From: an uncultured Bacillales bacterium
GTDB lineage: Bacteria > Bacillota_I > Bacilli_A > RFN20 > CAG-826
NCBI GenBank assembly: GCA_902464635.1
Contig: CABQKC010000008.1
Span: forward strand, 1,521-65,520
DNA length: 64,000 nt
Reading direction: 5' to 3'
Numbering within the stretch: position 1 is the stretch's first letter; each line of letters begins with the position of its first letter. Shown here piece after piece: positions 15,684 through 62,194 of this stretch. A model generated the notes under the pieces. That model saw nothing but the letters and a program-made list of their open reading frames with translations. It did not search any database and was not told where the DNA came from. A program made the translations under genes and the position numbers.

Positions 15684-15685
15684 AT

Positions 15686-46221: not shown

Positions 46222-46693
46222 ATTTGATTGATGTCACATATCGATTTTGAATACGTGCCTCCACTATTTTCTTGTTTTCTATACATGGAATTAATCTTTT
46301 TTCTATATAGAAAGATTTTGTTTTTCCTTCACTAACTATCTTGAATGTAACAAATTCAACCTCATGAACAAATATAGAAATATCTTCAATTTCAAATGAT
46401 TCAATTTGATAGGTTGAAATCGATACTTTTCTTATTTCCTTAATCAGGGATAACTTTCCAATTAAAGGAGCTAGATAATATGTTCCTATAAAAAACAAGC
46501 TACATAGAAGCAAAGAGAAAAAGAGGCATAGAAGAACTTCATAAACTACATAATTGCTTCTATTAGCAAGGAAATAAAATAACAAAGATATCCCTATTCC
46601 AAAAAGAAGAACGATACCCATGATTATAGAAACAAGCTTAATCCTGCTTCTAACCTTAATTTCTTCTTCTTGAGAATAGAACTTACTTTCCAT
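46214..46693 (-). CDS. 2-TM hairpin protein with beta-rich cytoplasmic C-terminal domain (module copy 2, gene 2)
   Basis: The ATG at 46693 (MESKFYSQ) gives 159 aa, the same as copy 1. Same topology and the same Y-E C-terminal end. The ORF-track start at 46744 would overlap the ATPase gene by 62 nt. Confidence 0.6.
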   Translation of the reverse strand: MESKFYSQEEEIKVRSRIKLVSIIMGIVLLFGIGISLLFYFLANRSNYVVYEVLLCLFFSLLLCSLFFIGTYYLAPLIGKLSLIKEIRKVSISTYQIESFEIEDISIFVHEVEFVTFKIVSEGKTKSFYIEKRLIPCIENKKIVEARIQNRYVTSIKYE

Positions 46694-47477
46694 TTCTAAT
46701 TTCCTCGATATCAAAAGTATCGTTGCTAAATAAAGAAGAAACAAATTCGGTCTTTGGTTTCCTAATTATTTCATCTACTGTCCCTACTTGTTCAACTTTT
46801 CCTTCGTTTAATATGATTAGCCTATCAGAAAAAGCACTAGCTTCTTTTAAATCGTGTGTAATAAAAAGAAAAGTTCCATCTATTAAACTAGATAATTCCC
46901 TTAAGCTATGCCAAATGTCTTGTTTGCTAGCTACATCAATAGATGCAAAAGGCTCGTCAAATATAAATAAAGAAGCATTGTTTGCCATGGCCCTAGCAAG
47001 TGCAACTCTTTGTTGTTGACCTATGGAAAGTTGCTTTATTCTTCTTGGCAAAAGCAATTCAATATCAAATTTCTTGGCCAATTCCAAAACTCTTTCCTTT
47101 ATATAATTAGAATCCATCCTTAGATTCTTCAAAGGAAAAGCAATATTATCGTAAACAGTCATCGAAGGATAAAGGATGCGTCTTTGGGCTATATAGGCCA
47201 AATGTCTTTCTCTTAAGGGAATTGATTCGATATCATTCCCGTCTAAATAGATATTCCCGCCATAATCCTGAAGGCCTAATATAATTTTGACTAAAGTAGA
47301 TTTGCCTGCCCCTGATGGGCCAAGCAAAGAAACAAATTCACCTTCATATATTTCAAAAGAAACGTGTCTTAAAACAATGTTGTGTTTCTTTCTTTTGATA
47401 TATTCGCTAGAAACATCATCAAATTTTAGTTTTATTCTTTTATTGGACTCTGTTTGCGAAGTACGAGATGGCACCAT
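46683..47477 (-). CDS. ABC transporter ATP-binding protein, MalK-like NBD only, degenerate signature (module copy 2, gene 1)
   Basis: GPSGAGKST, IAQRRILYPSMT, LSIGQQQR at the signature position, IFDEP, ITHD. The start is uncertain: ATG at 47477 or TTG at 47516. Either overlaps the ROK gene 3' end. Confidence 0.8.
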   Translation of the reverse strand: MVPSRTSQTESNKRIKLKFDDVSSEYIKRKKHNIVLRHVSFEIYEGEFVSLLGPSGAGKSTLVKIILGLQDYGGNIYLDGNDIESIPLRERHLAYIAQRRILYPSMTVYDNIAFPLKNLRMDSNYIKERVLELAKKFDIELLLPRRIKQLSIGQQQRVALARAMANNASLFIFDEPFASIDVASKQDIWHSLRELSSLIDGTFLFITHDLKEASAFSDRLIILNEGKVEQVGTVDEIIRKPKTEFVSSLFSNDTFDIEEIRNGK

Positions 47478-48702
47478 AATTTTCAGAATTAGTCCTCTTC
47501 TTTGCCATTTCAGCAAATCTAGATAATAGGTATTTGCTGCTAGCTTGATATACAGCCCCTAGCAAATTTGAATCGTGATTCAATGAAGACGTGATTATTT
47601 GAACTGTATTAAAGTTCTTGTCATATAGCCTAAAATAACGAAGCAAAGTCTCAAAATATTCTTTGCCGAAATCAAGAATCCTCCCATCGATGCAGATATA
47701 ATCTAAATCTAATAAGTTAGCAATATATAGCAACTGTAAGGCGTTTACCCTAGCGGATTTATCAACTGCTTTTGAAACTATTGGATCATTTTGCTTATAA
47801 CGTTCAACTACATCGTTTAATTGGAATACATCCTGTTTGAAGAATGAATCATTACTATCTTTTGAAAGTTCATGAATCTCGGCATAAATGTCAGTAATGG
47901 TAAAGAAGCGGCCTAAATAGTTTCTAGAGCAATCATCTACTTCATTTATATTTGCCATTTCGCCTGCAAATCCATTAGACCCAGTATATAAATCTCCATT
48001 AAACATCAAAGAGGATCCAGAAGTTATATCAATGAATACAAAGAATACGTTCTTTGCATCTTTAGGGATAGAACCAAACCTTGCCTCCCCTGCCAAACCT
48101 AGATTGATATCGTTAAACATCTCACATTGGACATGAAATTCATTTTCAAAATATTTTTGAATATTAATCGTCCTGCAATCCTTGACTCTAGGAGCAGAGA
48201 TAAAATCATGGGTAAGTTTATCAAATTTGCCAGGAGAAGAAATACATATTCCTAACAATGGACGATTATTAACAACATCTGAAAGAAGCATGTTTTTTAG
48301 TTTTCTTGAAATCTCTTTTAAAACATCTTCATCGATATAAATTACATGTTTGACTGTATCTCTAATCAATATTTGGTTAGATGCATCGCTAATGCAAAAA
48401 GCCATATCTCTACCAGATAGATCAATCGCGGCAAAAACTCCGATATCATTATCTACTGTATAAAGAACTCTCTGCCTGCCTCTACCTTTTTTTCCATTAT
48501 TAATATTTACATAAGGAACGATTAGTTTCTCTTCTAATAATTCCTCGGTAATGAGTTTTAATGCAGGGTTAGACAAAGAAGTCTTTTTAGAAAGTTCGAT
48601 GCAACTAATAGGGCGTTCACGGATGTAATCCATTACCACTATCTGGTTAGCAATTCTAATGTTAGAAGGCGATTTTAATATAGCTGCTTTTTCTTTTTTC
48701 AT
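47440..48702 (-). CDS. ROK-family regulator-like protein lacking the ROK zinc-cysteine signature
   Basis: N-terminal wHTH (ISCIELSKKTSLSNPALKLITEELLEEKLI) and a ROK/ASKHA-like body (GICISSPG, GFAGEM). The segment where C-x-C-G-x2-G-C-x-E should lie reads AGEMANINEVDDCSRNYLGRF. Confidence 0.65.
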   Translation of the reverse strand: MKKEKAAILKSPSNIRIANQIVVMDYIRERPISCIELSKKTSLSNPALKLITEELLEEKLIVPYVNINNGKKGRGRQRVLYTVDNDIGVFAAIDLSGRDMAFCISDASNQILIRDTVKHVIYIDEDVLKEISRKLKNMLLSDVVNNRPLLGICISSPGKFDKLTHDFISAPRVKDCRTINIQKYFENEFHVQCEMFNDINLGLAGEARFGSIPKDAKNVFFVFIDITSGSSLMFNGDLYTGSNGFAGEMANINEVDDCSRNYLGRFFTITDIYAEIHELSKDSNDSFFKQDVFQLNDVVERYKQNDPIVSKAVDKSARVNALQLLYIANLLDLDYICIDGRILDFGKEYFETLLRYFRLYDKNFNTVQIITSSLNHDSNLLGAVYQASSKYLLSRFAEMAKKRTNSENYGAISYFANRVQ

Positions 48703-48709
48703 TTAAGTA

Positions 48710-50338
48710 TCACAAAATGTTATTTGAAACATTTGAATTGTAACAATTATAGCAAATCGCACTCTTAGGGTTAGTCTCTTTTTTAATTAAAGGCAATATC
48801 TTTTCCCTTAATTCTTCGATTCTATCTATTGTTCCGTTCGTATAGGCAATTACTACTCGTCTAGTTTCTTCTAATCTTGCTTTTAATCCACCAAGACGAA
48901 GTTGTCCTACTTCCATTCCAACTGGTTTATCATCAATAATCCATCTTTTCCTATATTGGGTAGAGAAATCACTTAATCTATTGATACATTCTTCAATTCT
49001 AGGCAACAAATTCTTCAATTCTTCCTTATCACCTTTTTGGTAGGCATCCCTTAATCTAACTCCTAATGAAACCTTGATTGATAAGAGATGACATAAAGAA
49101 GCTAGATAATCAAAGATATATTTATATTCCCCACATCTAAAACTTACTTCACTTAGCTTCTTCGCATGTTTTTCAAATAGGATTTCATCATTCAAATCGA
49201 CTCTGTTATCAAATATGCCTAGCAATGGATCGTTATAGAGAAAATACTTACATGGGTTAACTAATTTAGGGTCATCCCCTTCTCCTGGGTTAGTTATTTG
49301 GTTAGGGATTTCTAATAATTTCAAATCATCGTACTTATAACCTAATACATTAAAGAAATCTTCTTTGATTTTATTAATGTCATTAATTCCCTTGGCTATT
49401 TCAGAAGCAAAGAACAATGATGTAACAGATGAGAACATTGAGCATTCAGCCCCGTTATCACCCCAGCCAGTCATAATGACGTTCCTGACTTTATTATCGA
49501 TGCAACTTCTAATTCCTGGAGCAATAGTTTCTTCTGCCTTACTTAATAAAGGGGCAAATCCAGCCCAAGTCCATACTCCAGAGGCAAAATAAAGCGAATT
49601 AGAATTAATTTCCTTATGGAGAGATATCATCTTGTCATAAACATTCTTGTCATTATGGTAATAATCCCAATAGACTTGCAAGACATCCTTAGGAACATCT
49701 TTCAATTTATTTGGATCCATCTTGGCATCCACGTTATAATAAGAAGAGTTATTAGACGCCAATCTAAAGAACATATCAGACCACATCATCACGCTGAATC
49801 CGTGTTTCTTTGCAATCTCATTAACTTTATTTAGATGTCTAATAAATATGTCGGTTCTATCTTGATATCCGTGTAGTTCTTTGTATTTCCCTAGTCCTAA
49901 TAAATGAGCTTCATCCATTCCAATATGAACTCTTCTAGAGGTAAATTCTTTTTCTAATGAAGAAAACATATTATCGATTAATTGATAAGTTCTTTCATCA
50001 TCTACTAGCAAAATGTCATTTATATCGTTAATCGAAGAATAATCTTCATGACGGAATATTTGATTTAGATGGGCAAGAGTTTGGATACAAGGAATTAATT
50101 CAATCCCATATTCTTTCGCATATTCATCTATCTCTTTTAAATCAGAAACGCTATATCTTCCGCGAAGATAGCCAAAATATGGCTCTTTATCAACTTCATA
50201 AGTATCTTCGGTATAAAGCATTAAGGCGTTATAATCCATTTTCTTTAATAAACGGATTAATCTTTTAACCGATTCAACATTCAAAACCCCATTTCTAGAA
50301 CAATCGACCATAAAGGCAAATGTATCAAAGTTTTTCAT
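48710..50338 (-). CDS. GH20 beta-N-acetylhexosaminidase (cytoplasmic), paralog 2
   Basis: VHIGMDEAHLLGLGKY, MMWSDMF, VYWDYYH. Collinear with 31148-32743. Confidence 0.7.
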   Translation of the reverse strand: MKNFDTFAFMVDCSRNGVLNVESVKRLIRLLKKMDYNALMLYTEDTYEVDKEPYFGYLRGRYSVSDLKEIDEYAKEYGIELIPCIQTLAHLNQIFRHEDYSSINDINDILLVDDERTYQLIDNMFSSLEKEFTSRRVHIGMDEAHLLGLGKYKELHGYQDRTDIFIRHLNKVNEIAKKHGFSVMMWSDMFFRLASNNSSYYNVDAKMDPNKLKDVPKDVLQVYWDYYHNDKNVYDKMISLHKEINSNSLYFASGVWTWAGFAPLLSKAEETIAPGIRSCIDNKVRNVIMTGWGDNGAECSMFSSVTSLFFASEIAKGINDINKIKEDFFNVLGYKYDDLKLLEIPNQITNPGEGDDPKLVNPCKYFLYNDPLLGIFDNRVDLNDEILFEKHAKKLSEVSFRCGEYKYIFDYLASLCHLLSIKVSLGVRLRDAYQKGDKEELKNLLPRIEECINRLSDFSTQYRKRWIIDDKPVGMEVGQLRLGGLKARLEETRRVVIAYTNGTIDRIEELREKILPLIKKETNPKSAICYNCYNSNVSNNIL

Positions 50339-50340
50339 AT

Positions 50341-52401
50341 CTATCTCCCAGGAAGCTGAAGCGTGCTGTCTATTATTTTATCATTTTCTTCTTCTCTTTG
50401 CTTTTCGTTTTGTTTGCATATACGTATATTTTTAATGCAAATGTTCACCTTTTTTGCCTTGTCTGCATGAAAATAGAATTCAATCTTAGAAAGACTCTCA
50501 ATTAATGATTTATCAATTTTAACCTGACCTTCTGAACCATCTAAAACATTACTTAGATCTAGATAAAATGTCTTATAAGCAGAGGTTACTTCTTTACTCA
50601 ATGAATTGAATTTATAAATATTCCCATTGATTCTAAATAAGGCACCCATGAATGAAACGCTTCTATTAGATTTAATATCAATAGCTAAATATGGGTAATA
50701 GGCAAGCCTATGGAAACAGCCGGACAAACCTAGGTTAAACGCGATAGAGGAATAAAAATAAGAATCATTAGTAATCGAGGTAAGGTATCTTAGTTCCCCA
50801 TCCTGTACATTAATTGTTCCAGCTTGGTTCCTTATATATTCGCCCATTTCGAAAGTAGGAACATTAAATCCCCCACCTACACTCGCACCGAAATTATTTT
50901 CCATAATAGACGGGAATCTTAACCCTGAAATTATGTAATCTAAATCAAATAATTTCCTATCGACTTCGGAGTAAAAATTCCTGCACGGGCTTAATGGATA
51001 TCCTTTTATGCTTCTACAGTCACATAAATAAGAGTAATGGGTAAAAGCATAAGTGAAATATATTGGTTTTTTTACATAAGGTGAATATATTCTTATTTTC
51101 TTTGATTCAATAGAAATAGCCTTGGCTAAATAAAAAACCTTATCCTCATTAGCAATGGTAAAACCAAAATATTCTTTACCTAATTCTAATTCATCATCTT
51201 TTATATCCAGTTCAAGAAGTATTGAATTACGCTCAATTTTTATATCTTTTACAAATGGATAATTAAATCCATTAGACCCGTATACATTTCTTTCTAAAAT
51301 AAATGCAATTCTAGAGGCCACTTCCCCTTTGCTAACTGTATGAATTGGATGGTCTACTTGATTGCCGTCTTTTACTAACCATTTTGGATAAATATCAAAG
51401 ACAGGAACATAATAAACATATTTAATGGACAAGGAAGAAATTGCTTCTTGAATATAAAATAAGCCGCATCCATCTCCATATGGGTAATATTCATCCGCAA
51501 TACCTAAAACTACAAAGGGGATTTCTTCTTCAAAATAATCCCTATAAGAATAGATTAGGGAAGTTAGAGCCTTTTTAAAATATTGTCCCGAAGCGAAATC
51601 AAAACAAGAATTCTCACCTTGATAATAGATGATAGATTTAAATTTCAATCTTTTTAAAGGGGCTATTTTTTCATTATAGAATCCTGACTGCTGGGTATAA
51701 TTACCCGGACCAAAACTATTCCACCTGGATTTATCTTCGATGTATTTACCACTACTTAGAAGATAAGACTTTATCTCAGGAGCATTCTCAATCGTATTTT
51801 CATCAAGCAAAGAATCAATTGATATTCCTCCAGTAGAAGCAGAAATTGTTCCCAAAGGATAATTTAGGTTTGGGCAAAGTCTTTCTAGGGTCATGCTAAC
51901 TAAAGCGCTTGATTTCAGCAACACGTCCCCTTTTAATTTCTCCCATTTGCATTTTTCGCAAATATCATTTTTGGGCTTAATAGGTCTATTGATATACCCT
52001 TCCTTGGTTACATCTTCGTCTTCTAGATTGAGAACATATAATTCTTTTCCTTTAACGTTTCTAATTGTCTTTTCCTTATCTTCCATCATGGATAAAGAAA
52101 TAGACATATTGGATTGACCTATGAATAAAAATAAATCGCCACAATAAATAGGAGATATTTCTATATTCTCTTCATCTGAAGTTATTCTTAATGAATATGG
52201 ATCAAAACTTCCCTTTAAAGGAGGAAAAGAGATTTTGAAATCGCCTCCATCGAGATTTATTTTTAAAGGAGAAATCTCTACTAGGCTAACTAGATTAACT
52301 AGCTTTGCCTTGATAGTTTTATTGCAACTATTCCCCCATACTGAAAATACTTCATTTTGTTGAAATACCATGTATGGAGAAAAGATGGAGGCGAGTTTCA
52401 T
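50341..52401 (-). CDS. SGNH/DUF303 sialate-O-acetylesterase-like carbohydrate esterase with C-terminal extra domain
   Basis: N-terminal IFSPYMVFQQNEVFSVWG, FLFIGQSNMS (GQSNM nucleophile block) and IIYYQGENS (WYQGESN-like block). No signal peptide. Confidence 0.7.
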   Translation of the reverse strand: MKLASIFSPYMVFQQNEVFSVWGNSCNKTIKAKLVNLVSLVEISPLKINLDGGDFKISFPPLKGSFDPYSLRITSDEENIEISPIYCGDLFLFIGQSNMSISLSMMEDKEKTIRNVKGKELYVLNLEDEDVTKEGYINRPIKPKNDICEKCKWEKLKGDVLLKSSALVSMTLERLCPNLNYPLGTISASTGGISIDSLLDENTIENAPEIKSYLLSSGKYIEDKSRWNSFGPGNYTQQSGFYNEKIAPLKRLKFKSIIYYQGENSCFDFASGQYFKKALTSLIYSYRDYFEEEIPFVVLGIADEYYPYGDGCGLFYIQEAISSLSIKYVYYVPVFDIYPKWLVKDGNQVDHPIHTVSKGEVASRIAFILERNVYGSNGFNYPFVKDIKIERNSILLELDIKDDELELGKEYFGFTIANEDKVFYLAKAISIESKKIRIYSPYVKKPIYFTYAFTHYSYLCDCRSIKGYPLSPCRNFYSEVDRKLFDLDYIISGLRFPSIMENNFGASVGGGFNVPTFEMGEYIRNQAGTINVQDGELRYLTSITNDSYFYSSIAFNLGLSGCFHRLAYYPYLAIDIKSNRSVSFMGALFRINGNIYKFNSLSKEVTSAYKTFYLDLSNVLDGSEGQVKIDKSLIESLSKIEFYFHADKAKKVNICIKNIRICKQNEKQREEENDKIIDSTLQLPGR

Positions 52402-52406
52402 TCTAA

Positions 52407-53672
52407 TTAATTATCTTTCTTTCTTTTAATAGCAACAACGCTTAAGCCTACTAAAGCAACTACTGCAGCAATAGAAGAACCAACAATCGTACCACCGCAA
52501 CCGCCTTTAGTTTCTACATTTGATGTAGTTGGTTCAGAAGTTGAAGTTGAAGGTGTTTCAGCTTTTTTGGTAAGAGAAATTGTAAATCCGACACTTCCGC
52601 CTTCAGTTGTCAAAATGAAAGTCCATCTACCTTCACCAAGCTTTTCTAGATAATCTTTGGAAATGGTAACTTTATTTCCATCAACCGTGTAATATTGGGA
52701 TAATAATTCATTAACGGCCTGCTTAATGCTAGTAACTTGTTCACCATATAAATTGAAATCGATAGTAACATCTTCTCCTAAAGTTGCATCTATAACATTA
52801 TTTTCAATTGTAGGAGCCTTGTGTTCAGGATCAGTTGGTTCTGGATTTGGGGTATATGGCTTTTCATCGAGGTTTTCTAAATGGATATTGTCATAATAAG
52901 CATCAGAAACACATGATACCAAACTAACATAACCATAGTTTTGGGCAGTCTTCTTTGTAATTGTAGTTTTTCCTAAAACGTGACCGTTTATAGAAATGCT
53001 GAATTCTGTATCAATAACTGAAATCTCAACTTTTAACCAGGTATTGACCGCGCCTGCAAAGTCAGTGAAATTACTTGCATTATATGGAGTGGCTTCAGCA
53101 GTCCCATCTGCATTAGTCATTTCAACATTCATAAAGGAAGCATCAACGCTTCTATATGCTTGGACTCCAAAGCTACTAGCTTCCCAGCTTCTAACTACCA
53201 TCATGACATTGGTGACGCCATTATATCTGCCATCCATTGGTTTTCTGAAATTAAAACCAGTCCAGGCACCAGTTGGAACAGTTTGGTATAAGTCATAAGA
53301 CAATTTGAAATTCTTGACGTAGATATCCTTCATAGTCAAATAGAAGAAGGATTCCATATATGAAGCTGTATCTACTCTTAATACTTTATTGCTAGGATCA
53401 GTTGGACTTTCTGTTACATAAAATCTATTAGCCTGACCTGCGATTTCGTTATTGTCGCCAGTCTTTTCATACCACCCATTAGTCCATTTGGCATTGATAT
53501 CGGCCCTAGTGCCTTCGTTTTGGGTTTCGATTGCATAAGATTCAAAATCCTCATCGAAATTTGGTGTCAAATCTGCTTCTTCCGCTTTAGTAGCAACGGC
53601 ATTGCTAGAAAGTGAAGAAAGTAAAGCGAATGACGAGATTGCCCCTAACATCAAAATTAAATTCTTTTTCAT
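52407..53672 (-). CDS. Secreted LamG/DUF1080-like surface protein with S/T/P linker and GGCGG-TM-KRKK C-terminal signal
   Basis: The ATG at 53672 gives MKKNLILMLGAISSFALLSSLSS. YVKNFKLSYDLY and YDNIHLENLD are jelly-roll motifs. The C-terminus reads TKGGCGGTIVGSSIAAVVALVGLSVVAIKRKKDN. Confidence 0.7.
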   Translation of the reverse strand: MKKNLILMLGAISSFALLSSLSSNAVATKAEEADLTPNFDEDFESYAIETQNEGTRADINAKWTNGWYEKTGDNNEIAGQANRFYVTESPTDPSNKVLRVDTASYMESFFYLTMKDIYVKNFKLSYDLYQTVPTGAWTGFNFRKPMDGRYNGVTNVMMVVRSWEASSFGVQAYRSVDASFMNVEMTNADGTAEATPYNASNFTDFAGAVNTWLKVEISVIDTEFSISINGHVLGKTTITKKTAQNYGYVSLVSCVSDAYYDNIHLENLDEKPYTPNPEPTDPEHKAPTIENNVIDATLGEDVTIDFNLYGEQVTSIKQAVNELLSQYYTVDGNKVTISKDYLEKLGEGRWTFILTTEGGSVGFTISLTKKAETPSTSTSEPTTSNVETKGGCGGTIVGSSIAAVVALVGLSVVAIKRKKDN

Positions 53673-53689
53673 ATATGTAACTACTCCTT

Positions 53690-55084
53690 TCAATTTTCGT
53701 AGTTAAGTAAATCAATTAATATAGATTCCCCTGGCTCTAAATCTAACTCCAAAGAAGAACCCTTAACCTCTTCTATAGAGGCATTTTGGTATTTATTCGC
53801 CCTGACATAACTAGAGAAGTTTAACTTGGCTTTCCCTTTGTTAGTCAAAGAATTATTGAATACGTAATAAGCACTTTTTCCTCCATGGTCAAATACCCCG
53901 ATAAGTAAATCGGATTCAGTATCAACGTTTTTAAGTTCGCGGAAAGAAGTAACGAATTCTGCTTTTTGTTCGTTAGAGAACGCAGCAGGAGAAGAACCAA
54001 ATTGCATCAAGGCAACTCTAGAAGAAATCATCAATATTTCATCCATAGAAGCAATTTGTTTGTTTATGGATTGAAAATATGGGAATAATTCAGTCTTTTC
54101 GCCATTTTTATTAACAAAATTGCCTCTCCAAAGGGCGTCATCTACTTCATATGGGGTCATATAGCAGAAATATTGGATTCCCTTCGCCCCATAAACTAGA
54201 TTGGAACCTATTTGCCAATCGATTTCAACTTTAGTAGGAACTCTTACTGTCCAACTATCAAATGAGCCTGCTTGGATAAATGGCCAGAAAGGAACTTTAT
54301 ACTTATTTGCTAATTTTGATGCTAGATATAGCTGATCAAAATAGCCGCCAGATACAGATGGGAATTCTTTTCTTAAACCATAGAAATCAAAACTAAGTAC
54401 CTGAGGTTGTACGGTTTTTAAAAATGATTCTAGATATTGTTCATAACTAACTGGCTGTCCAGCAATCCCACTAAGTTGATCGCTAGTCGCATAGTTAGGG
54501 AATAAATTAACATAATAGCAATATTTGGAATAATAGCTTCTAAAAGCCTTCCTTCCGCTTACTAAACCTTGGAATTTGTTCAAGGCTGGTTCATCTGTAA
54601 TCAATGAACCTCCATATGATTTGTAGGAAGCAAATTCATCCATGGCTTCCTTAAATGCATCAATGTCCTCACTTAATGCCCCTACTCTTTCATCTCTAGG
54701 AAGATAAACTAAACCATTATCTTCTGCTAATTTAAGAGCCCTTTTGATATTGGTCATTGATAAACCAGCAGTTTCATATAATCCATATATTGAATTAAGG
54801 CCAGCCTCTTTAATCATGGCAAATTGTTCTTGATTAATATAATCCTTATCACCCATCGACCAAGGGGAACACCATCCACTAATAGGCATTGTAGTCCTAT
54901 CTAAAGATGGAAAAGTATATGTGAATAAATTTACTTCTTGGTTGAGTTTTAGTTTCTCTTCATTGTCTTTAGAAGAATTTGTTTCTTTTTCTTCGCTAGA
55001 GGAACTAGAAGTAATTACTTGTCCACCACAGCTAGTCAATGTTAATAAAAGAAACAAGGCAAATGGCTTAATAGATTTATTCAT
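53690..55084 (-). CDS. Lipoprotein, TIM-barrel-like putative glycoside hydrolase (unassigned family), paralog A
   Basis: The ATG at 55084 gives MNKSIKPFALFLLLTLTSC, with GGAGG 9 nt upstream and an ATGA overlap with the permease stop. Blocks LITDEP, YVNLFPNYA, SFDFYG and IQYFCYMTP. Confidence 0.65.
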   Translation of the reverse strand: MNKSIKPFALFLLLTLTSCGGQVITSSSSSEEKETNSSKDNEEKLKLNQEVNLFTYTFPSLDRTTMPISGWCSPWSMGDKDYINQEQFAMIKEAGLNSIYGLYETAGLSMTNIKRALKLAEDNGLVYLPRDERVGALSEDIDAFKEAMDEFASYKSYGGSLITDEPALNKFQGLVSGRKAFRSYYSKYCYYVNLFPNYATSDQLSGIAGQPVSYEQYLESFLKTVQPQVLSFDFYGLRKEFPSVSGGYFDQLYLASKLANKYKVPFWPFIQAGSFDSWTVRVPTKVEIDWQIGSNLVYGAKGIQYFCYMTPYEVDDALWRGNFVNKNGEKTELFPYFQSINKQIASMDEILMISSRVALMQFGSSPAAFSNEQKAEFVTSFRELKNVDTESDLLIGVFDHGGKSAYYVFNNSLTNKGKAKLNFSSYVRANKYQNASIEEVKGSSLELDLEPGESILIDLLNYEN

Positions 55085-55968
55085 CCTTTTAGTCCTCCTG
55101 TAGTAACGTTGGTCATTATTTGTTTTTGGAATGCGATGAAAATAATGATTATTGGGAGCATCGAAAATAGCATCAATGCAAATAAGGCAGGCCAATTAGC
55201 GTCATATTGCATTTGATTTACATAAGCCTGTAATCCTACCGCCAAAGTCGGATTATTCTTTAAATATAGGAACGGTGTGTAATAATCGTTCCAGAATCCG
55301 ATGAAATTAAGTATCCCTAATGGAATTAATGAAGGTAAAACCATTGGGAGCATGATCTTAATAAATACGGTCAATTCATTCGCCCCATCTATATAAGCTG
55401 ATTCAGCATAAGACCAACTTATTGATTTAAACGCCCCATATAGCAATAGGAATTGGAAACCAAATCCACCGGAATAGAGCAAGATTAGGGCCAATATGTT
55501 GTCATATAACCCAAGGTCTCCGATTAATTTATAGGTTGCAGATGTTGATCCAATCGTAGGAACAACCATGACCATAACAGCCAAAATATATAAAGCGTTT
55601 CTTCCAAAGAATTTGAATTTGGCAACTACATAGGCAACGCAAGATGCACTAGCTAAAGAAAGAAGAGTTCCAATTGTAGCAATAAAGAAGCTACGTAATG
55701 TCATTTCCCAGACATTAGAACCCATCATTTTCCTATTCAAGACGGTTTTTAGATTAATCCACCCATTTGAGAAATCTTTTGGCCAACTCCATACATCCTG
55801 GAAGAATTCGGCATTAGTCTTAAACATATTAAGAAACATCCAGACAAAAGGAAAAATTAGACTTGCCGCATAGATGAAAAAGACAAAGAACATGATGCCC
55901 TTGGCTATCCTTAATGATACAGGGTCCCTCACGCTTTTGCCTTTTTTGATATTCCTTCTTATCTCCAT
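55081..55968 (-). CDS. CUT1 sugar ABC transporter permease (LplC/YtcP-like), locus 2
   Basis: EAA-loop region ESAYIDGANELTVFIKIMLPMVLP. Six TM helices. Confidence 0.85.
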   Translation of the reverse strand: MEIRRNIKKGKSVRDPVSLRIAKGIMFFVFFIYAASLIFPFVWMFLNMFKTNAEFFQDVWSWPKDFSNGWINLKTVLNRKMMGSNVWEMTLRSFFIATIGTLLSLASASCVAYVVAKFKFFGRNALYILAVMVMVVPTIGSTSATYKLIGDLGLYDNILALILLYSGGFGFQFLLLYGAFKSISWSYAESAYIDGANELTVFIKIMLPMVLPSLIPLGILNFIGFWNDYYTPFLYLKNNPTLAVGLQAYVNQMQYDANWPALFALMLFSMLPIIIIFIAFQKQIMTNVTTGGLKG

Positions 55969-55984
55969 AAATGTTTCTTTCTTC

Positions 55985-56016
55985 CCTAGGAGGCATAGAT
56001 AACTACGCCCCCTAGG
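55985..56016 (-). promoter_or_regulatory. Intercistronic stem-loop between the 820-aa surface-protein gene and the downstream permease gene
   Basis: Minus strand reads CCTAGGGGGC, 12-nt loop, GCCTCCTAGG. 10-bp stem with one G-U pair and no T-run. Confidence 0.4.
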
Positions 56017-56034
56017 AATAATTGTTATTTTGTA

Positions 56035-58449
56035 TTATTTTTCTTTTTTGCGTTTAGCGGCAATTATACCAATTGCACCTAGAACGCTAACTGCAGCAAT
56101 AGAAGATCCGACGATTGCGCCACCACATCCTCCTTTGCTAGTTGAACTAGTTTCAGAAATGGATGGGGTTGGTTCTACGCTATCTTCGCTTGTAGATGGG
56201 GTTGGAGCAGATGAGGATGATGATTCAATTGGTTCAGTAGCCTTTTCAATTACATGGAGTGTAACTGTCTTGGTTTCAGAATAATCTTCGCTATCAAAAG
56301 CTTTATAGGTGAATGTTACATCTCCAGTAGTTGCATCACCTTTAGCAACATAGCTAAATGTACCATCTTCATTAAAGGTTAATGTGCCCTTAGAAGCAGT
56401 GTTGTCTTCTACTAATTGATATGTAAGGGTTTCTCCTTCATCTTCATCAGTAGCAACGACTGCTTCAGTTAAAGTTTCTCCAGCATTTACATTGAAAGAG
56501 GCATCTACTGCAACTGGAGCTTTATTTGGAGTTTCTCCATCAAGGTTAGTTAGTTTGATATCATCGATCCAGAAATTACCACCTGCAGTTGAAACAAATG
56601 AAATATATCCGGCAGTGTCCCAGTTATATCTAGTTAGAATCGGATTTCCTTCAGCATTTGCAGGATTAGTTAACCAAGTTTTTACTAAGCCATCTTCAGC
56701 CCTGATATGGACTTTCATCATAACGTCCTTATTGGCTTCGTTTAGCATCAATGTATCAGCGCCACACCAGCCTCTATCACCAGCTTGTCCATTTAGGAGA
56801 GAATCGACTGTATCAACACCGAAATAAATTAATCCAGAACTAGTGAATGGGTCGCTTGGATTTTCTTTTCCTAGCGAAACACCAATCCAAGTAGAAGCAG
56901 GGGTGATATTGCCGTCATCATCTTCTTCTAGTTGCTGTTTCTTGCAGGTGAATTCTAAATCAAAGTTAGCGTATTCGTGCTTGGTTGCAAAATAAGATCC
57001 ATCAGCAGAATCTTTGAATCTAACCATGCCGTCTTCTTGAATGTAGACATGTCCGTCTTCTTCGATAACATTGCCACCACTTAAGGCTGTAGATTTATAA
57101 GTCCAGTTATGGTCAATCTTGCCACCTTCAAAAGTTGGGGCCAAATCACGTCCAGACTTAACTACTCCTTTGTAATTAGAAATCTCTATTTTCGAAATCT
57201 TACTAGAAGTAGTACCGTTCCCTAAGAAAGCAATTCCAACTCTTCCTTCTCCAAAAGTAGTGACAGAAGAAACACTTTTTGCTCCAAATGTACCTGTAAC
57301 AGTATATGAAGTTCCATCATATGTAATAGAAGACTCTAATTTTGCTGTAGTTCCATCTAAGGAAGTTTCTCCTAAAGATTCGCTAGCTTTAAGTTCGCCA
57401 CCGACATATAGAACTAGCTCGTTAGCAGTCCTGTTTTTCCTAATTCCAACAAAATTAGCAGTTGTTGCATCGGCTACTTCTCCATTTAGGCCTGTAGCAA
57501 TTCCAATAGCCTTTTCTCCTAATGTTTCAAGAGCCAGTGTAGCAGTCATGGAAACGACTTTATTAGATTTTTCTCCTCTTGTATAAGATGTCTTATAAAT
57601 AATGCCAGCCCCAGTGTCTGGAGAAGAGGCGACTAGATATTTAGCAGGATCATTGCGAGTATATTTAGCTTGGTTAATCATAACCGAGTCCATGACAAAC
57701 TTATCAGTTCCAGGAGTCTCGAAATCTTCTTCAACAACATAGGCTAAATTAGCTAAATCTTTATTATCGGCAAGCCCAACTTTGATATTGTCTAAAGTGA
57801 CGGAGCCAGTAAAAGAATTACCCATGAAGGCAACATAGCCACTACCAACAGAAACAAAAGAACCAGCGGTCCAATAGCAAATCAAGGCAAATTCTCCACC
57901 AGTCACTTTTCCATAAAGTTCTGCTGAGCCATCGGCATTGAAAACCATTCGATATGAACCATTAACATATGTATTGAGTGCTTGCCACTGCGTTTGAGCA
58001 CCTGCTGCAGTAAAAGGTAGTTTTCCCGTTGCTGTATTTGCAATGTTTCCACTTAGTTGAAGCATTACCATATCGCCCCAGCATCCACCAAAATTAGAAG
58101 CACCTTTGCCAATGCATAAGTAGCCTCCACTATCATAATCGGAGGTAGAGAATTCTACGACGGTAGATTTGCCTTCGCCAACAGCCAAGGGTTCCTTTGT
58201 CCTAAAAAATCCATCGTTATAGTTCATCGTTGATAAGGTGACGGAGCCACTTTTATCAACGAAATTAAATGCCCCTCCGTTTCCTTTTACGACATCAAAA
58301 GTTTCAGTTGGGATACCATTAGGAAATCCTTCGCTAACTGTCGAGTCGAGGAATGTTGCGGCTGATGTCGCTTTCGGTTGAGATATCCCTGCTGCAATTG
58401 CGCCCAAGGCAAGTAGCATTCCAGGAATTAATAGTAATTTACCTTTCAT
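56035..58449 (-). CDS. Secreted multi-LamG/DUF1080 surface protein with cadherin-like/tandem-95-type Ig domain and GGCGG-TM-KRKK C-terminal signal
   Basis: The ATG at 58449 gives MKGKLLLIPGMLLALGAIAAG. HEYANFDLEFTCK and WIDDIKLTNLDG are DUF1080-like. DEDEGETLTYQLVEDNTASKGTLTFNEDGTFSYV is an Ig-like repeat. The C-terminus reads SKGGCGGAIVGSSIAAVSVLGAIGIIAAKRKKEK. Confidence 0.7.
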   Translation of the reverse strand: MKGKLLLIPGMLLALGAIAAGISQPKATSAATFLDSTVSEGFPNGIPTETFDVVKGNGGAFNFVDKSGSVTLSTMNYNDGFFRTKEPLAVGEGKSTVVEFSTSDYDSGGYLCIGKGASNFGGCWGDMVMLQLSGNIANTATGKLPFTAAGAQTQWQALNTYVNGSYRMVFNADGSAELYGKVTGGEFALICYWTAGSFVSVGSGYVAFMGNSFTGSVTLDNIKVGLADNKDLANLAYVVEEDFETPGTDKFVMDSVMINQAKYTRNDPAKYLVASSPDTGAGIIYKTSYTRGEKSNKVVSMTATLALETLGEKAIGIATGLNGEVADATTANFVGIRKNRTANELVLYVGGELKASESLGETSLDGTTAKLESSITYDGTSYTVTGTFGAKSVSSVTTFGEGRVGIAFLGNGTTSSKISKIEISNYKGVVKSGRDLAPTFEGGKIDHNWTYKSTALSGGNVIEEDGHVYIQEDGMVRFKDSADGSYFATKHEYANFDLEFTCKKQQLEEDDDGNITPASTWIGVSLGKENPSDPFTSSGLIYFGVDTVDSLLNGQAGDRGWCGADTLMLNEANKDVMMKVHIRAEDGLVKTWLTNPANAEGNPILTRYNWDTAGYISFVSTAGGNFWIDDIKLTNLDGETPNKAPVAVDASFNVNAGETLTEAVVATDEDEGETLTYQLVEDNTASKGTLTFNEDGTFSYVAKGDATTGDVTFTYKAFDSEDYSETKTVTLHVIEKATEPIESSSSSAPTPSTSEDSVEPTPSISETSSTSKGGCGGAIVGSSIAAVSVLGAIGIIAAKRKKEK

Positions 58450-58502
58450 GTGATTTTTCACTCCTTTCAGTAAATATACAAACGGGCTATTGCCCAAAAT
58501 AA

Positions 58503-59453
58503 TTAATATTCAACGGCAGGAAAGAACCTCTCCAATAGCCACTTAATTAATTGGATTAATGGGATACCTATGACGGTAAATATCATTCCAACAGCGGCAG
58601 CTTTATATAATTGATTTGCATTAACTAAATTCATGATAAATAAGGCAATAGTAGAAGAGAGTCCGTCATATGGCCCTCCTCCTGTTAATAACATCGGTTG
58701 CAGGAAGAGAGTAAAGATGACAGATACACCAGAAACAAACAAAGTAGTAATTGTTCCTGAAATCATTGGGGTTACAACTTGGACAAGCTCTCTCCACAAC
58801 CCAATTCCATCCATTTTCCCGGCTTCGAAAATATCGCTAGGAATGCGGTTTATCGCGCCAGAAAGCAAGACGACGTTATAGCCAATCCCAGCCCACAAAC
58901 AATAGAAGAGAACCATCCACATTACAGTTGATTTATCTCCTAACCATCCGTTTTTAGGAATTATTCCACCTAGTCCTATGGCTTTAAGAATTTCATTGAC
59001 TGGTCCGAATGTTGAATCAATCATGAACGAGAATGACATGGTCAAAACAACAACGGATATAATGTTTGGAAGGAAGAATATAACCCTGAAAGCTTTAGAT
59101 CCAGGCACCTTCTTTTGAAGGATATAAGCACAGAAAATAGAAACCGGAAGCAAGACAAAGTTATTGCTCAGGAATAGGTATATGGAATTTATGATTGAAT
59201 TCCTTAAATCGGGCTCGTCTGGACTAGTTAATCTTTCAAATGCCCATTTGTAATTATCTAAGCCTACAAATATCTCTCCTAATTCATAGTCTAATCTTTG
59301 GAAAGACATTACTATCGTGTCGATGTTAACGTAAGCCCAAAAAACAAGGAACTGCAAAAGAGGATAGGCAATCATGCATATAATGAAGATTATCCTACCC
59401 CAATTATGCTTTTTCTTGGGTTTATGTAATTTTAACGTTTCGACCTCATCCAT
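58503..59453 (-). CDS. CUT1 sugar ABC transporter permease (LplB/YteP-like), locus 2
   Basis: EAA-loop region EAGKMDGIGLWRELVQVVTPMISG. TM-rich. Confidence 0.85.
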   Translation of the reverse strand: MDEVETLKLHKPKKKHNWGRIIFIICMIAYPLLQFLVFWAYVNIDTIVMSFQRLDYELGEIFVGLDNYKWAFERLTSPDEPDLRNSIINSIYLFLSNNFVLLPVSIFCAYILQKKVPGSKAFRVIFFLPNIISVVVLTMSFSFMIDSTFGPVNEILKAIGLGGIIPKNGWLGDKSTVMWMVLFYCLWAGIGYNVVLLSGAINRIPSDIFEAGKMDGIGLWRELVQVVTPMISGTITTLFVSGVSVIFTLFLQPMLLTGGGPYDGLSSTIALFIMNLVNANQLYKAAAVGMIFTVIGIPLIQLIKWLLERFFPAVEY

Positions 59454-59456
59454 AAT

Positions 59457-60821
59457 TTATTTAACAAACGGGATAACAAATATTCCATCTCCCTCGTCTA
59501 GAGTGATTTCGAATTTATTGGAATTAAGTTCAACTACTTCTTTATTTTCGCCATGATAAACAAGGGCGTGTGTCGCACCATTGAAATCAAGACTAATGAC
59601 ATCTTTTTTAAGTTCGGAAGGGTCAGAGAAGTTAGAAATAATGAATCCATCCCTTCCTTCTTTGTTCTTAAAGGAGCCGATTAAAGTATTTTGAGAACAA
59701 TTTATATTAGAAATAGCATCAATCTTTTCTAGTGATTGTTGGCACATTTCGATTTGTCTTGGAGTACCCGATACTTCGTTTCCTACAACAGGCATCGTAC
59801 CAACCCAAGAGAAATCTAGATAAGCTTCGTCCATGCTCATCAAATCTTTATTAACGTTTTTGACATGATTATATAAATCAGTTCTCTTTCCATCTTTTGT
59901 AATCATTGATGGAGATGAGGCTTCGCCAAATTCAAGCGGAGTCCAGTAGCAGAAATACTGAATAGACTTGGAGCCATATGCCAATTCAGTCATTACTTGA
60001 TGACGTACTTCGGCTTCATTTGGAATTCTAGTATTCTTATCAAAACTCATCGCTTGAACGAAGGTATACATATCAATCCCGGCTTCTTTACATTTGTTAG
60101 CCACTATCTCAAGATTCCATAAGACATCTTCGGTCAATGATTTATTGCCATAGATATCTTCAGTCATTGAATAATGGTCGTATGAAAGGAATTTTGGTTT
60201 TAGCTTTTGAATATAAAGATCAATATATTCGGCATAGGAATCGGTTTGAGTTTGGCTAGTCAAGGCATATGTAGGGAATAAATTTACATAGAATTCCTTG
60301 CCAGGATAATCTTGTTCATATAATTCTTTTAATTTTGCAAGGGAATCGAATCTAGAAGCCCCAGGTTCGTCAGTAACCAAAAATCCACGCAAAGCCTCAG
60401 CATCGTCATAGGATTTTGTAATGTTGTGTAAATCTCCCTTTTCTAATTCAAGGAGATCAGGGTCTAAATCAATGTAATCCCTTGCCAAATATTCAATACC
60501 AGCATTTTTAGCATATTCCAATGCATTTTTAATAGCAGTTCTATTGCCGATTTCATAAAGGGCATAGATAACATTAATCCCGCTTTCGGCAATTTCGTTA
60601 TATCTTTCTTGGGTTATGAAATTTGGATTTCCCTTGTTATTCCAGTTTTCGGCTGGAGGAGCAACCCAGGCACCAACGCGAAGAACATTTTCAGCTTGTT
60701 TGGAAGCAAAATCTGGCTGTCCTGAAACAACATCATATTTAATTTTATTGGCATCATTGCAAGACATAAGGCAGACCCCTCCAAAGGCTGTTAAAGAAAT
60801 TAATTTGAGTATCCTTTTCAT
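59457..60821 (-). CDS. Lipoprotein, TIM-barrel-like putative glycoside hydrolase (unassigned family), paralog B
   Basis: Signal LTAFGGVCLMSC. Blocks FLVTDEP, YVNLFPTYA, SYDHYS and IQYFCYWTP, shared with 53690-55084. Confidence 0.65.
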   Translation of the reverse strand: MKRILKLISLTAFGGVCLMSCNDANKIKYDVVSGQPDFASKQAENVLRVGAWVAPPAENWNNKGNPNFITQERYNEIAESGINVIYALYEIGNRTAIKNALEYAKNAGIEYLARDYIDLDPDLLELEKGDLHNITKSYDDAEALRGFLVTDEPGASRFDSLAKLKELYEQDYPGKEFYVNLFPTYALTSQTQTDSYAEYIDLYIQKLKPKFLSYDHYSMTEDIYGNKSLTEDVLWNLEIVANKCKEAGIDMYTFVQAMSFDKNTRIPNEAEVRHQVMTELAYGSKSIQYFCYWTPLEFGEASSPSMITKDGKRTDLYNHVKNVNKDLMSMDEAYLDFSWVGTMPVVGNEVSGTPRQIEMCQQSLEKIDAISNINCSQNTLIGSFKNKEGRDGFIISNFSDPSELKKDVISLDFNGATHALVYHGENKEVVELNSNKFEITLDEGDGIFVIPFVK

Positions 60822-62194
60822 TTTCCAAAGTTCCCCGCTTCTTTTTGGAACTTGCTCCAGTTATTAGAAACAAAGTTATAGATTGTGTTATGAACTGTCT
60901 CAGCAGAATCACCTTCCTGGATCATCTTTGAATAAGGTGCGCCATATCCTGGCCATGTATTAAGGCTATTTTGGTAATACATGATGGATTTAGAATTCAT
61001 ATAGACATTCTTTCCTTCTTCCCACATCAAGCAGCAATCTTTTGTGAAATCTGAGATACCTTCAATTGTTGAAGGTTTCTTTTCATATTTGAAAGGGCGG
61101 ATGCCTCCAGCTGATTTTGTAAATATTTCTAGGGCACTTTCGGTGCAGGTATAGGCCAAGAATTTCTTAGCAGCTTCTTTATTGGCAGCTTTCCTTGGGA
61201 TAACCATGAAGTCTCCAGAAGTGCAATATAGCAAGTCTTCTTTAGCTCCTTCTATTGTTGGGGTTTTCATTAGACGCATCTTGAAATTCGATGGCATGGA
61301 TGACTTCATTTCGTTTTCAAGCCAAGCCCCATTAGACATCATGGCAGCCTCGCCTCTAACAAAAGACATTTGGGATTCCATGAATTTCTTCCCAGCTGCC
61401 CCAGGAATTGAATTCTTTGGGCTTCCGTCTTCTCCGCAGACTAATTTTTCAAATCCTTGGAGGGCTTTTAATCTTCCTTCCTGCTTATAGACTTCAGGAG
61501 ATTCAAATTTCCAGAATTCATTCCATTTTTCCCTGCCCTCATATTGAGCCCACCACTGTAATGTTGTGAAATCCCAATATGATGCGACTGCACCGCTCCA
61601 AGAGAATGGGGCAACAGTACCAGCGCTATCGCTATTAATCTTGTTACATAATGTTTCTAATTCAGCAAATGTAGTAGGGACACTCCATTTATATTGCTCA
61701 AACATTGAAGCGTTATAAACCAATCCGCAAGGGTTAACTGACCATGGAAGTGCATAATATTTTCCTTTAACTTCTCCAAAGTCTTGTAAACCTTCAACTA
61801 TGGAGTCTTTAACTGTACGGCTCGTGCCTTCGACAGTCGTGTTATATAAATCGTCTAGAGGTTCTAGATAACCATTGACAGTCCAAGGCTGCCAGTTTGT
61901 TTGAAGAACCATTGCGATATCAGGTAAATTAGTTCCGTTTTGTAATCTTGGCAAAATGTTGACAGTCATCTGGGCATCGCCATCAAGATCTAATTTAATT
62001 TTGTCATCAGGATGTTTTTCGTTATAGTCAGCTTCCCAATCAAGGAGGAATTGCCTTCCAAAGCCAGCTTCAACAAAAGCGATTTTTACAATTGAATACT
62101 CACCGTCTTGAGTATTAGGTTTGCCACCACAAGCAGTCAAAGCTAAAGTAGACAAACACATTAATGCAATGTTACGGATTTTTATTTGTTTCAT
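60818..62194 (-). CDS. CUT1 ABC transporter extracellular solute-binding lipoprotein, locus 2
   Basis: Signal CLSTLALTAC. It is ~440 aa mature and the first gene of the operon with the two permeases. GGAG lies upstream of the ATG. Confidence 0.8.
   Translation of the reverse strand: MKQIKIRNIALMCLSTLALTACGGKPNTQDGEYSIVKIAFVEAGFGRQFLLDWEADYNEKHPDDKIKLDLDGDAQMTVNILPRLQNGTNLPDIAMVLQTNWQPWTVNGYLEPLDDLYNTTVEGTSRTVKDSIVEGLQDFGEVKGKYYALPWSVNPCGLVYNASMFEQYKWSVPTTFAELETLCNKINSDSAGTVAPFSWSGAVASYWDFTTLQWWAQYEGREKWNEFWKFESPEVYKQEGRLKALQGFEKLVCGEDGSPKNSIPGAAGKKFMESQMSFVRGEAAMMSNGAWLENEMKSSMPSNFKMRLMKTPTIEGAKEDLLYCTSGDFMVIPRKAANKEAAKKFLAYTCTESALEIFTKSAGGIRPFKYEKKPSTIEGISDFTKDCCLMWEEGKNVYMNSKSIMYYQNSLNTWPGYGAPYSKMIQEGDSAETVHNTIYNFVSNNWSKFQKEAGNFGK

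Follow-up and report, generated by a model that had tools for sequence, protein, structure and literature searches.

A candidate cysteine-type C-terminal sorting signal on exported surface proteins of wall-less gut Bacilli

Tripartite C-terminal sorting signals with an invariant Cys form a class that was defined in a preprint by Haft (2023; 10.1101/2023.06.07.544157). The known Cys-type signals, MYXO-, JDVT-, Synerg- and CGP-CTERM, are found in diderm bacteria and in Thermococcales and are paired with CPBP-family 'Mrt' proteases. Cleavage of MYXO-CTERM by MrtX needs the Cys and also works in E. coli, and Lgt is the leading candidate for the lipidation of this signal despite the inverted topology (Guo, Haft & Wall 2025, PMC11980579). 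Here we describe a Cys-containing tail at the C-terminus of two exported proteins that are encoded in a stretch of 64,000 nucleotides (the window) from contig CABQKC010000008.1 of an uncultured bacterium of the order RFN20, family CAG-826. No account of such a signal in Mollicutes-like bacteria came up in literature searches. We favour reading the tail as a Cys-type tripartite C-terminal sorting signal that is new, with MYXO-CTERM (GCGC) as its nearest counterpart and a monoderm wall-less bacterium as its host; its processing is something that we infer.

One carrier is a Big_9/cadherin-like protein encoded between two ATP-binding cassette (ABC) permease genes, and the other is a lectin-like protein with a CBM_X2 domain. 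A preliminary description of the window had proposed for both a tripartite architecture with a Cys motif at the C-terminus; translation bears this out, with exact coordinates for the two KGGCGG tails, both on the minus strand. The features of the two genes are as follows.

56035..58449, minus strand: gene of the Big_9/cadherin-like exported surface protein, 804 residues, between two ABC permease genes
58360..58449, minus strand: predicted Sec type-I signal peptide of the 804-residue protein, MKGKLLLIPGMLLALGAIAAGISQPKATSA, without a lipobox, putative cleavage site before the following A
56140..56241, minus strand: disordered stalk of the Big_9 protein, rich in S/T/P/E, ATEPIESSSSSAPTPSTSEDSVEPTPSISETSST, as read from the sequence
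56035-56139, minus strand: tail of the 804/820-residue protein, translated SKGGCGGAIVGSSIAAVSVLGAIGIIAAKRKKEK and then the stop
56119..56136, minus strand: signature K-G-G-C-G-G of the Big_9 protein, Cys codon TGT at 56125-56127
56056..56118, minus strand: 21-residue helix of the Big_9 protein, rich in small residues, AIVGSSIAAVSVLGAIGIIAA, predicted from hydropathy
56038..56055, minus strand: basic stop-transfer cluster KRKKEK of the Big_9 protein, predicted cytoplasmic, stop codon at 56035-56037
52407..53672, minus strand: gene of the exported lectin-like protein, 421 residues, with signal peptide, ConA-like beta-sandwich, Ig-like CBM_X2, stalk and tail
52407-52511, minus strand: tail of the 421/428-residue protein, translated TKGGCGGTIVGSSIAAVVALVGLSVVAIKRKKDN and then the stop
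52491..52508, minus strand: signature K-G-G-C-G-G of the CBM_X2 protein, Cys codon TGC at 52497-52499
52428..52490, minus strand: 21-residue helix of the CBM_X2 protein, TIVGSSIAAVVALVGLSVVAI, predicted from hydropathy
52410..52427, minus strand: basic cluster KRKKDN of the CBM_X2 protein, stop codon at 52407-52409

The layout is common to both proteins, with an S/T/P-rich stalk leading to K-G-G-C-G-G, a 21-residue helix (an example of the helix peptide is GGAIVGSSIAAVSVLGAIGIIAAK) and KRKK. A degenerate DNA pattern for G-C-G-G-x-I-[IVM]-G-x17-K-R matches twice in the window, against 0.00 matches expected from 100 shuffles, and these are the only two window open reading frames (ORFs) with such a tail; the similarity of the tails is not chance. 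The two are identical at 66 of 105 nucleotides and use the same codon at 9 of 21 identical residues. Because the codons differ at many identical residues, the tails are not the product of a recent duplication.

Among ten strict-type tails there are no indels between the Cys and the K-R pair, and G-1, C0, G+1, G+2, I+4, G+6, A+11, L+15, A+22, K+24 and R+25 are invariant. A homology search with the 428-residue protein widened this picture to 30 orthologue clusters at 43-99% identity, in which G-1 and C0 are present in every cluster and G+2 in 29. Position +1 is G in 25 of the 30 and otherwise N, K or S; S, A, E and T occur at +3, and I, V and A at +4. The first basic residue lies 21 to 25 positions from the Cys, the helix sequence drifts, half of the clusters have A in place of G+6, and the one-sided stripe of the strict-type helix is lost in the wider family. 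Paralogues of the Big_9 protein add the variants GCAG, GCGS, GCKK and GCRG, and one orthologue of the 52407-53693 protein (P0103) has a doubled G-C-G-G-C-G-G with two Cys, which recalls the second Cys that is frequent in MYXO-CTERM (GCGC). All 60 distinct tails have C0. The invariance of the Cys claimed in the preliminary description therefore stands, and its strict GGCGG does not, since the core of the family-wide signature is wider: G-C-[GNKSAR]-[GSK]-[SAET]-[IVA], after which come an uncharged helix and then a K/R cluster. A short signature combined with physico-chemical conservation of the remainder is the behaviour of a tripartite sorting signal.

The lectin-family orthologues are all Cys-tailed, and so are the members of the Big_9 tail-protein family, which is confined to the RFN20/CAG-826-type lineage; a distant homologue (P0106) lacks the motif and ends in a plain transmembrane (TM) tail. 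Between orthologues the tail is 53-73% identical and the folded ectodomain 53-69%, against 17-42%, with indels, for the linker, 77% of which consists of STPGEDNQ in the CBM_X2 orthologue family. This comparison of sequences shows the tail to be under purifying selection.

Reuse of the tail was followed through an exhaustive HMMER search of 1.84 billion representative proteins, a genome scan and neighbourhood look-ups. The HMMER profile, built from two tail sequences before the broader G-C-x-G family had emerged from the orthologues, is narrow and gave six matches. The ectodomains that bear the same tail are of no fewer than five unrelated architectures, across several species: Big_9/cadherin, lectin with CBM_X2, Big_2/Big_3 (1014 residues), Flg_new (InlB B-repeat; 633 residues as annotated, in a 650-residue ORF), and Flg_new with F5/8 type C (837 residues). 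The earlier suggestion of a reusable signal is thereby extended well beyond the two window proteins. Such cargo is typical of LPXTG/sortase substrates in walled Firmicutes. PGAP names the tail proteins as hypothetical, Ig-like, InlB B-repeat or X2-like carbohydrate-binding module (CBM) proteins, and never by a CTERM sorting domain. Two to three are documented per genome, the metagenome-assembled genome (MAG) W1P33.029 having three (two at locus L007, one at L010), and the tail also occurs on proteins that are not encoded between two permease genes (L008, L009, L010 and L023).

A census of tails in about 221 kb of DNA from these organisms was restricted to ORFs of at least 150 residues with at most three predicted TM segments. 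Every C-terminal TM-plus-basic tail on a real gene in it carries the Cys motif, the other two matches being antisense shadow ORFs, and none of its C-terminal tails has an LPXTG-like string. No such string was found in the window, in agreement with the earlier remark that no LPXTG protein is visible there. A DNA-pattern scan of a metagenome collection gave 15 matches, three of them real, so that the strict motif is rare in that collection; a word-indexed protein search with the tail alignment gave no matches, the index being ill-suited to a 40-residue query. The tail is a real, reusable and strongly selected C-terminal module, and probably more than a plain anchor.

The tails of one genome also vary together. 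In the nine genomes with both operon proteins, and with invariant positions excluded, the two different proteins of one genome have tails with a mean identity of 58%, versus 26% for mismatched genome pairs and 27% for orthologues between genomes, and none of 100,000 permutations reached the observed within-genome identity. Even rare variants are shared, as with G-C-K-x-[ST]-I-[IV]-A-S-F-G in both proteins of L034 and G-C-[KR]-G-E-A-T-x-S-L-L in both proteins of L035. Recent gene conversion was considered as the cause of this similarity and ruled out by codon comparison, because paralogous tails are only 56-66% identical in DNA and have scrambled synonymous sites, with different codons at about half of the identical residues. 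The within-genome co-variation points to a shared recognition partner, and the most economical reading of the alignments is that all tails of one genome would fit one genome-specific partner; the same argument was made by Haft for MYXO-CTERM and sortase (10.1101/2023.06.07.544157).

In composition, the helix differs from other membrane segments of the same organisms. The share of G/A/S/T is 51% in 55 distinct tail helices versus 23% in 79 permease TM segments (Mann-Whitney P = 2e-21), aromatics make up 3% versus 14%, and Pro accounts for 0.1% of the tail-helix residues. Small-residue helices of this type are typical of the substrates of intramembrane enzymes and also of tightly packing helices.

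The genome scan of species representatives found the strict motif only in uncultured MAGs, labelled Bacilli bacterium HGM10937, uncultured Mollicutes bacterium UMGS1337, Ca. Enteromonas sp., bacterium W1P33.029 and Bacilli bacterium Horse_feces332, with one further bin labelled Lachnospiraceae. Accession prefixes of tail-positive MAGs are CAAGAN01 for HGM10937, URTN01 for UMGS1337, DAVZIW01 for Ca. Enteromonas, SFUB01 for W1P33.029 and JAKSUL01 for Horse_feces332, and GCA_045597825.1 is also tail-positive. The window is 96% identical to UMGS1337, 94.5% to HGM10937 and 92% to the Ca. Enteromonas sp. locus, and the proteins of W1P33.029 cluster with proteins that NCBI names Ca. Enteromonas sp. 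Tail-bearing RFN20/CAG-826 gut Bacilli (Ca. Enteromonas and relatives) span 30-56% GC. Ca. Enteromonas corresponds to GTDB genus UBA733 in order RFN20, family CAG-826 (PMC8035907); srtA/B are absent from this order, and for the family peptidoglycan deficiency is predicted (PMC10868615). The earlier supposition that the organism cannot use peptidoglycan anchoring is thus backed by literature prediction for the lineage (PMC8035907, PMC10868615).

The Lachnospiraceae-labelled bin contributes a 12-kb contig of 51% GC (L008, CAVKPZ010000058.1) that encodes the tail-bearing Flg_new/F5-8-C protein. The tail of this protein is most like the Enteromonas-type tails, and the gene is surrounded by a lipoprotein-rich ABC locus; mis-binning, or spread of the signal to a walled host, could account for it.

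Against this background the tail can be set beside the described signals. NCBIfam release 20, which holds many CTERM models, was searched with 24 tail or protein queries, and on the motif none of the CTERM models attained its cutoff. Of the weak matches, the one seen most consistently is that of the helix/basic half to the LPXTG_anchor model TIGR01167 (model positions 11-34, mostly 13-34), at 12-17 bits against a cutoff of 15.9, which fits descent from LPXTG signals. Sub-threshold matches that cover the Cys region were made only by the MYXO-CTERM ends of MXAN_2561, MXAN_5453 and Mrt_dep_phytase. With the same queries TIGR03901 (MYXO-CTERM) gave no match even at E<=10 and TIGR04564 (Synerg-CTERM) gave none, the CGP-CTERM model TIGR04288 reached at best 14.1 bits against 21 and on the helix only, Firmicu_CTERM (TIGR04145) 16.7 against 50 and PGF_CTERM (TIGR04126) 9.2 against 24.5, and no matches of the tail queries to the GlyGly-CTERM and PEP-CTERM models were reported. 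The tails nevertheless show the features of the Cys-type class, namely the order of motif, helix and basic cluster at the extreme C-terminus, an invariant Cys, and the same signal on unrelated proteins within a genome. The resemblance to MYXO- and CGP-CTERM noted in the preliminary description is apt at the level of the class and does not extend to a match at either curated cutoff of the hidden Markov models (HMMs).

The likeness to MYXO-CTERM lies in a Gly-rich signature with an invariant Cys (GCGC there; GCGG here, and GCGGCGG in P0103), in the tripartite design at the very C-terminus, with hardly any spacer, a TM helix free of charges and proline and a basic cluster, and further in the disordered linker upstream, the N-terminal Sec signal, the presence of several unrelated substrates in one genome and a signal that co-varies in a lineage-specific way. 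The two differ in their hosts, which are diderm Myxococcota there and monoderm wall-less Bacillota here, so that no outer membrane or type II secretion system (T2SS) step can apply; the basic cluster is Lys-rich here and Arg-rich there, and no CPBP enzyme was found here in the fetched loci. With Synerg-, CGP- and JDVT-CTERM the tail shares a Ser/Gly cluster and a single invariant Cys abutting the helix, and with CGP-CTERM also the S/T-rich stalk before the signal. Yet Synerg-CTERM has an invariant Pro in a Leu-rich helix, CGP-CTERM has C-G-P in place of G-C-G-G, and JDVT-CTERM has a DP motif, neither the Pro nor the DP being found here; their taxa are Synergistota, Thermococcales and Proteobacteria, whereas the present hosts are Bacilli.

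LPXTG signals (TIGR01167, PF00746; sortase A) have the same layout, with the motif about seven residues ahead of the hydrophobic core, and the same cargo types (Ig-like, InlB B-repeat, cadherin-like, CBM), but the pentapeptide is replaced here by the Cys motif, and attachment to a wall would be impossible in a host lineage from which sortase and peptidoglycan are reportedly missing (PMC10868615). The PGF-CTERM/archaeosortase ArtA system of the Haloferax S-layer glycoprotein sets a precedent for a monoderm cell that swaps a C-terminal helix for a covalent lipid; it too has an S/T-rich stalk, probably glycosylated, but its PGF motif, enzyme family and archaeal hosts are different.

We propose, with moderate confidence, that the tail is a lineage-specific Cys-type tripartite C-terminal sorting or anchoring signal of wall-less RFN20/CAG-826 gut Bacilli, carried by Sec-exported proteins of a glycan-binding or adhesin-like kind. 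Judging from their sequences, the N-terminal signal peptide would drive export through Sec and then be cleaved off by signal peptidase I. Transfer would be stopped by the C-terminal helix together with the K/R cluster, and in the predicted topology the ectodomain would be held outside on its S/T/P stalk with the Cys at the outer face of the membrane. The invariance of the motif and the concerted evolution of the tails suggest that a membrane-embedded factor, shared by all tail proteins of a genome and co-evolving with them, may recognise both G-C-x-G and the small-residue helix. The most likely chemistry is suggested by MYXO-CTERM/myxosortase and PGF-CTERM/ArtA, from which we infer lipidation of the tail: Lgt, or an enzyme like it, would attach a lipid to the Cys thiol, and an intramembrane protease may or may not remove the helix. 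The end product would be a surface protein with a C-terminal lipid anchor.

Lgt is presumably present, because the host makes many canonical lipoproteins, and the tail read backwards resembles an N-terminal lipoprotein signal (Lgt/LspA), with the basic end inside, an uncharged helix, small residues, a Cys at the outer face and an S/T/G/N-rich linker. The PROSITE-type lipobox rule (PS51257) is satisfied by 45 of the 60 reversed tails, and the preference next to the Cys for G, then N, then S is the same in the tails and in the organism's own lipoproteins. The signals differ in that the tail is C-terminal and of opposite chain polarity, and LspA could not remove a C-terminal helix. That Lgt might act on a mirror-image lipobox is only partly supported by these comparisons.

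Several points weigh against the proposed sorting signal. A monoderm wall-less cell has no need of helix removal in order to expose a protein at its surface; only two to three tail proteins are documented per genome, from partial genome coverage; and the remaining 15 of the 60 tails have E at +3 or K/R/N at +1, residues that the canonical lipobox bars. The concerted evolution could stem from old, repeated gene conversion or from docking to a non-enzymatic partner, even if old conversion combined with purifying selection would likewise need selection on the tail sequence. The search for a partner enzyme covered about 300 kb of fetched DNA, including the neighbourhoods L007-L010, L023 and L027-L035, and used regular expressions for CPBP, sortase and rhomboid, Pfam on seven small membrane ORFs of the window and NCBIfam on six of them; no signature or Pfam match of a CPBP protease (EExxxR/FxxxH/HxxxN), rhomboid, sortase or exosortase was found in the window, in the 10 kb beyond each edge or in the related loci.

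The absence of a processing enzyme from the fetched loci would be expected if the tail were a permanent type-I membrane anchor, the helix of which packs on the ABC permeases, on another tail protein or on itself, while the Gly-flanked and possibly S-acylated Cys serves as a flexible juxtamembrane hinge and the glycan-binding protein is held beside the transporter. We consider this unlikely but worth serious thought: the Big_9 tail gene lies between two permease genes in an odd order kept in all lineages, the helices are rich in small residues, the strict-type tails have both a G-x-x-x-G (G+2, G+6) and a one-sided stripe (I+4/A+11/L+15/A+22), co-evolution with the permease pair would also yield concerted tail evolution, and the distant homologue P0106 makes do with a plain helix. 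The same tail is, however, found on proteins encoded away from permease pairs (L008, L009, L010 and L023), and helix packing gives no reason for an invariant Cys. In the wider family, moreover, the helix drifts in sequence and length while G-C-x-G stays constant, so the conserved determinant is the extramembrane Cys motif and not a packing face.

The Cys might instead form an intermolecular disulfide that links two tail proteins, or a tail protein and another membrane protein, at the membrane surface, and a single invariant, solvent-accessible, membrane-adjacent Cys on two co-expressed proteins, one of which (the 428-residue protein) has one other Cys, is what such a bond would use. We hold this to be improbable, given that the hosts are strict gut anaerobes of a reducing habitat, that no thiol-oxidoreductase gene was seen in the loci, that the tail also occurs on proteins encoded alone, and that the invariant glycines around the Cys are left unaccounted for. 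Even less credible is a decayed LPXTG relic of walled ancestors, in which a functionless motif precedes a generic stop-transfer anchor. The weak TIGR01167 match of the TM/basic half, the LPXTG-type ectodomains and the loss of sortases in the lineage are all in keeping with it, but the motif is invariant in 30 of 30 clusters at 43% overall identity while the adjacent linker has been randomised, it evolves in concert between unrelated proteins, and none of the C-terminally anchored proteins sampled is without it.

All four known Cys-type C-terminal signals belong to diderm bacteria or archaea, and the surface display of non-lipoproteins in wall-less Bacillota after the loss of sortase is largely unexplored. 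More tentatively than the sorting signal as such, we suggest that this may be the first Cys-type C-terminal sorting system in a monoderm wall-less bacterium: after peptidoglycan and sortase were lost, LPXTG-type signals would have been converted into a lipidated G-C-G-G, with a helix recognised and perhaps removed by a co-evolving membrane enzyme, to yield C-terminal lipoproteins by which glycan-binding proteins are displayed next to the sugar ABC importers. Lgt, acting on the mirror-image lipobox, is possibly the lipidating enzyme of such C-terminal lipoproteins. If so, a dedicated signal would define the surface proteome of abundant uncultured 'Mollicutes-like' bacteria of the human and animal gut, and an HMM of the tail would be a sequence handle for adhesins and glycan-capture proteins in metagenomes. 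The lineage would also offer a simple system, free of outer membrane and T2SS, in which to ask which enzyme, perhaps Lgt, lipidates a C-terminal Cys of inverted topology, and the within-genome co-variation of the tails is a concrete co-evolution signal for finding the partner enzyme.

Two further candidates for a partner were rejected. The first is a protein of about 200 residues with five TM segments, encoded downstream of the Big_2 tail gene at L010:10950-11552 (plus strand) and L023:5763-6362 (minus strand), the two copies being 65% identical; it is absent from the window, has no family match and no catalytic-looking motif, and a divergent rpiB lies between it and the tail gene. The other is a cassette of an ATPase and three membrane proteins, considered as a sorting system. 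A second copy of it (2697-5313) follows an operon without tail proteins, and its ATPase is a MalK/UgpC-type importer nucleotide-binding domain; the cassette is probably transporter-related.

Both tail genes belong to a conserved operon with the following genes.

44712..62194, minus strand: conserved glycan-utilisation operon with both tail proteins, for sugar import and glycan degradation
60818-62194, minus strand: substrate-binding protein lipoprotein, operon gene 1
59457-60821, minus strand: lipoprotein, operon gene 2
58503-59453, minus strand: ABC permease, operon gene 3, followed by the Big_9 tail protein
55081-55968, minus strand: ABC permease, operon gene 5, after the Big_9 tail protein
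53690-55195, minus strand: lipoprotein, operon gene 6, followed by the CBM_X2 tail protein
50341-52401, minus strand: SASA-like esterase, operon gene 8, after the CBM_X2 tail protein
48710-50338, minus strand: GH20, operon gene 9
47440-48702, minus strand: ROK, operon gene 10
46683-47516, minus strand: MalK/UgpC-type ATPase, operon gene 11
46214-46744, 45601-46221 and 44712-45614, minus strand: three small membrane proteins at the operon end

The same gene order is found in loci L007, L031, L032, L033, L034 and L035, from genomes of 30-54% GC. The insertion of a large secreted surface-protein gene between two CUT1-type ABC permease genes (55081-59453, minus strand) is unusual, and this order is kept in L007 and L031-L035 across the same 30-54% GC.

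The carrier proteins are exported without N-terminal lipidation signals, both N-termini reading as type-I signal peptides and not as lipoboxes. The ORF of the Big_9 protein spans 56035..58497 and gives 820 residues from a TTG, while gene callers use the ATG at 58449 (MKGKLLL), which gives 804; Pfam places Big_9/Cadherin_4/Cadherin_5 at residues 657-749. For the CBM_X2 protein the ORF is 52407..53693 (428 residues), the ATG at 53672 gives 421 residues, and public gene calls range from 421 to 428. An AlphaFold2 model of this protein, made from 27 sequences with a mean pLDDT of 77, predicts a concanavalin-like beta-sandwich and an Ig-like X2 domain, then a disordered stalk that leads to a terminal helix; the modelled helix (residues 401-420 of the 421-residue form) begins about six residues C-terminal to the 52428..52490 segment and extends into the basic cluster. 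Foldseek matched the beta-sandwich to CBM66, DUF1080, the lectins Aap and YwfG and the lectin domain of galactocerebrosidase (GALC), and these lectin and CBM matches make the tail carriers surface glycan-binding proteins.

A lipobox regular expression matched near the N-terminus of 10 of the 44 window ORFs of at least 150 residues. The match of 26528-28183 is questionable, and the ORF at 12729-15689, with an evident LFGC lipobox that the expression missed, is an eleventh lipoprotein candidate. TTG starts of the mechanical ORFs overshoot the likely starts at 58450-58497, 53673-53693 and 55085-55195, the ATG starts giving proteins of 804, 421-428 and 464 residues; most of the apparent overlap of adjacent ORFs is thus an ORF-calling artefact.

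Two paralogous four-gene cassettes, at 2697-5313 and 44712-47516 (both minus strand), each close a sugar-utilisation operon. Each consists of a MalK/UgpC-type ABC ATPase without a regulatory domain and three small membrane proteins of no Pfam or NCBIfam family, the last of which has six TM segments and a YesL/DUF624-like N-terminus; identity between the two copies is 30-33%. In L007, L031, L032 and L033 the cassette and the tail-protein operon are conserved together.

Elsewhere in the window, gene sizes and Pfam matches, compared without alignment, suggest variation at the strain level, in that the glycan genes across about 2690-33900 are absent from metagenome contig L027 (about 31 kb), namely a GH38 mannosidase, DUF6259, large lipoproteins, an ABC importer and GH20. 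In L027 a response regulator gene and a 435-residue HipA_C-like gene stand directly before ORFs of 268 and 215 residues; in contig L028 it is the 435-residue HipA_C-like gene that is missing, again by gene sizes and Pfam. The corresponding adjacent 268- and 215-residue ORFs of the window (33968-35418, plus strand), which have no Pfam family, lie between minus-strand sugar operons and are conserved in L027.

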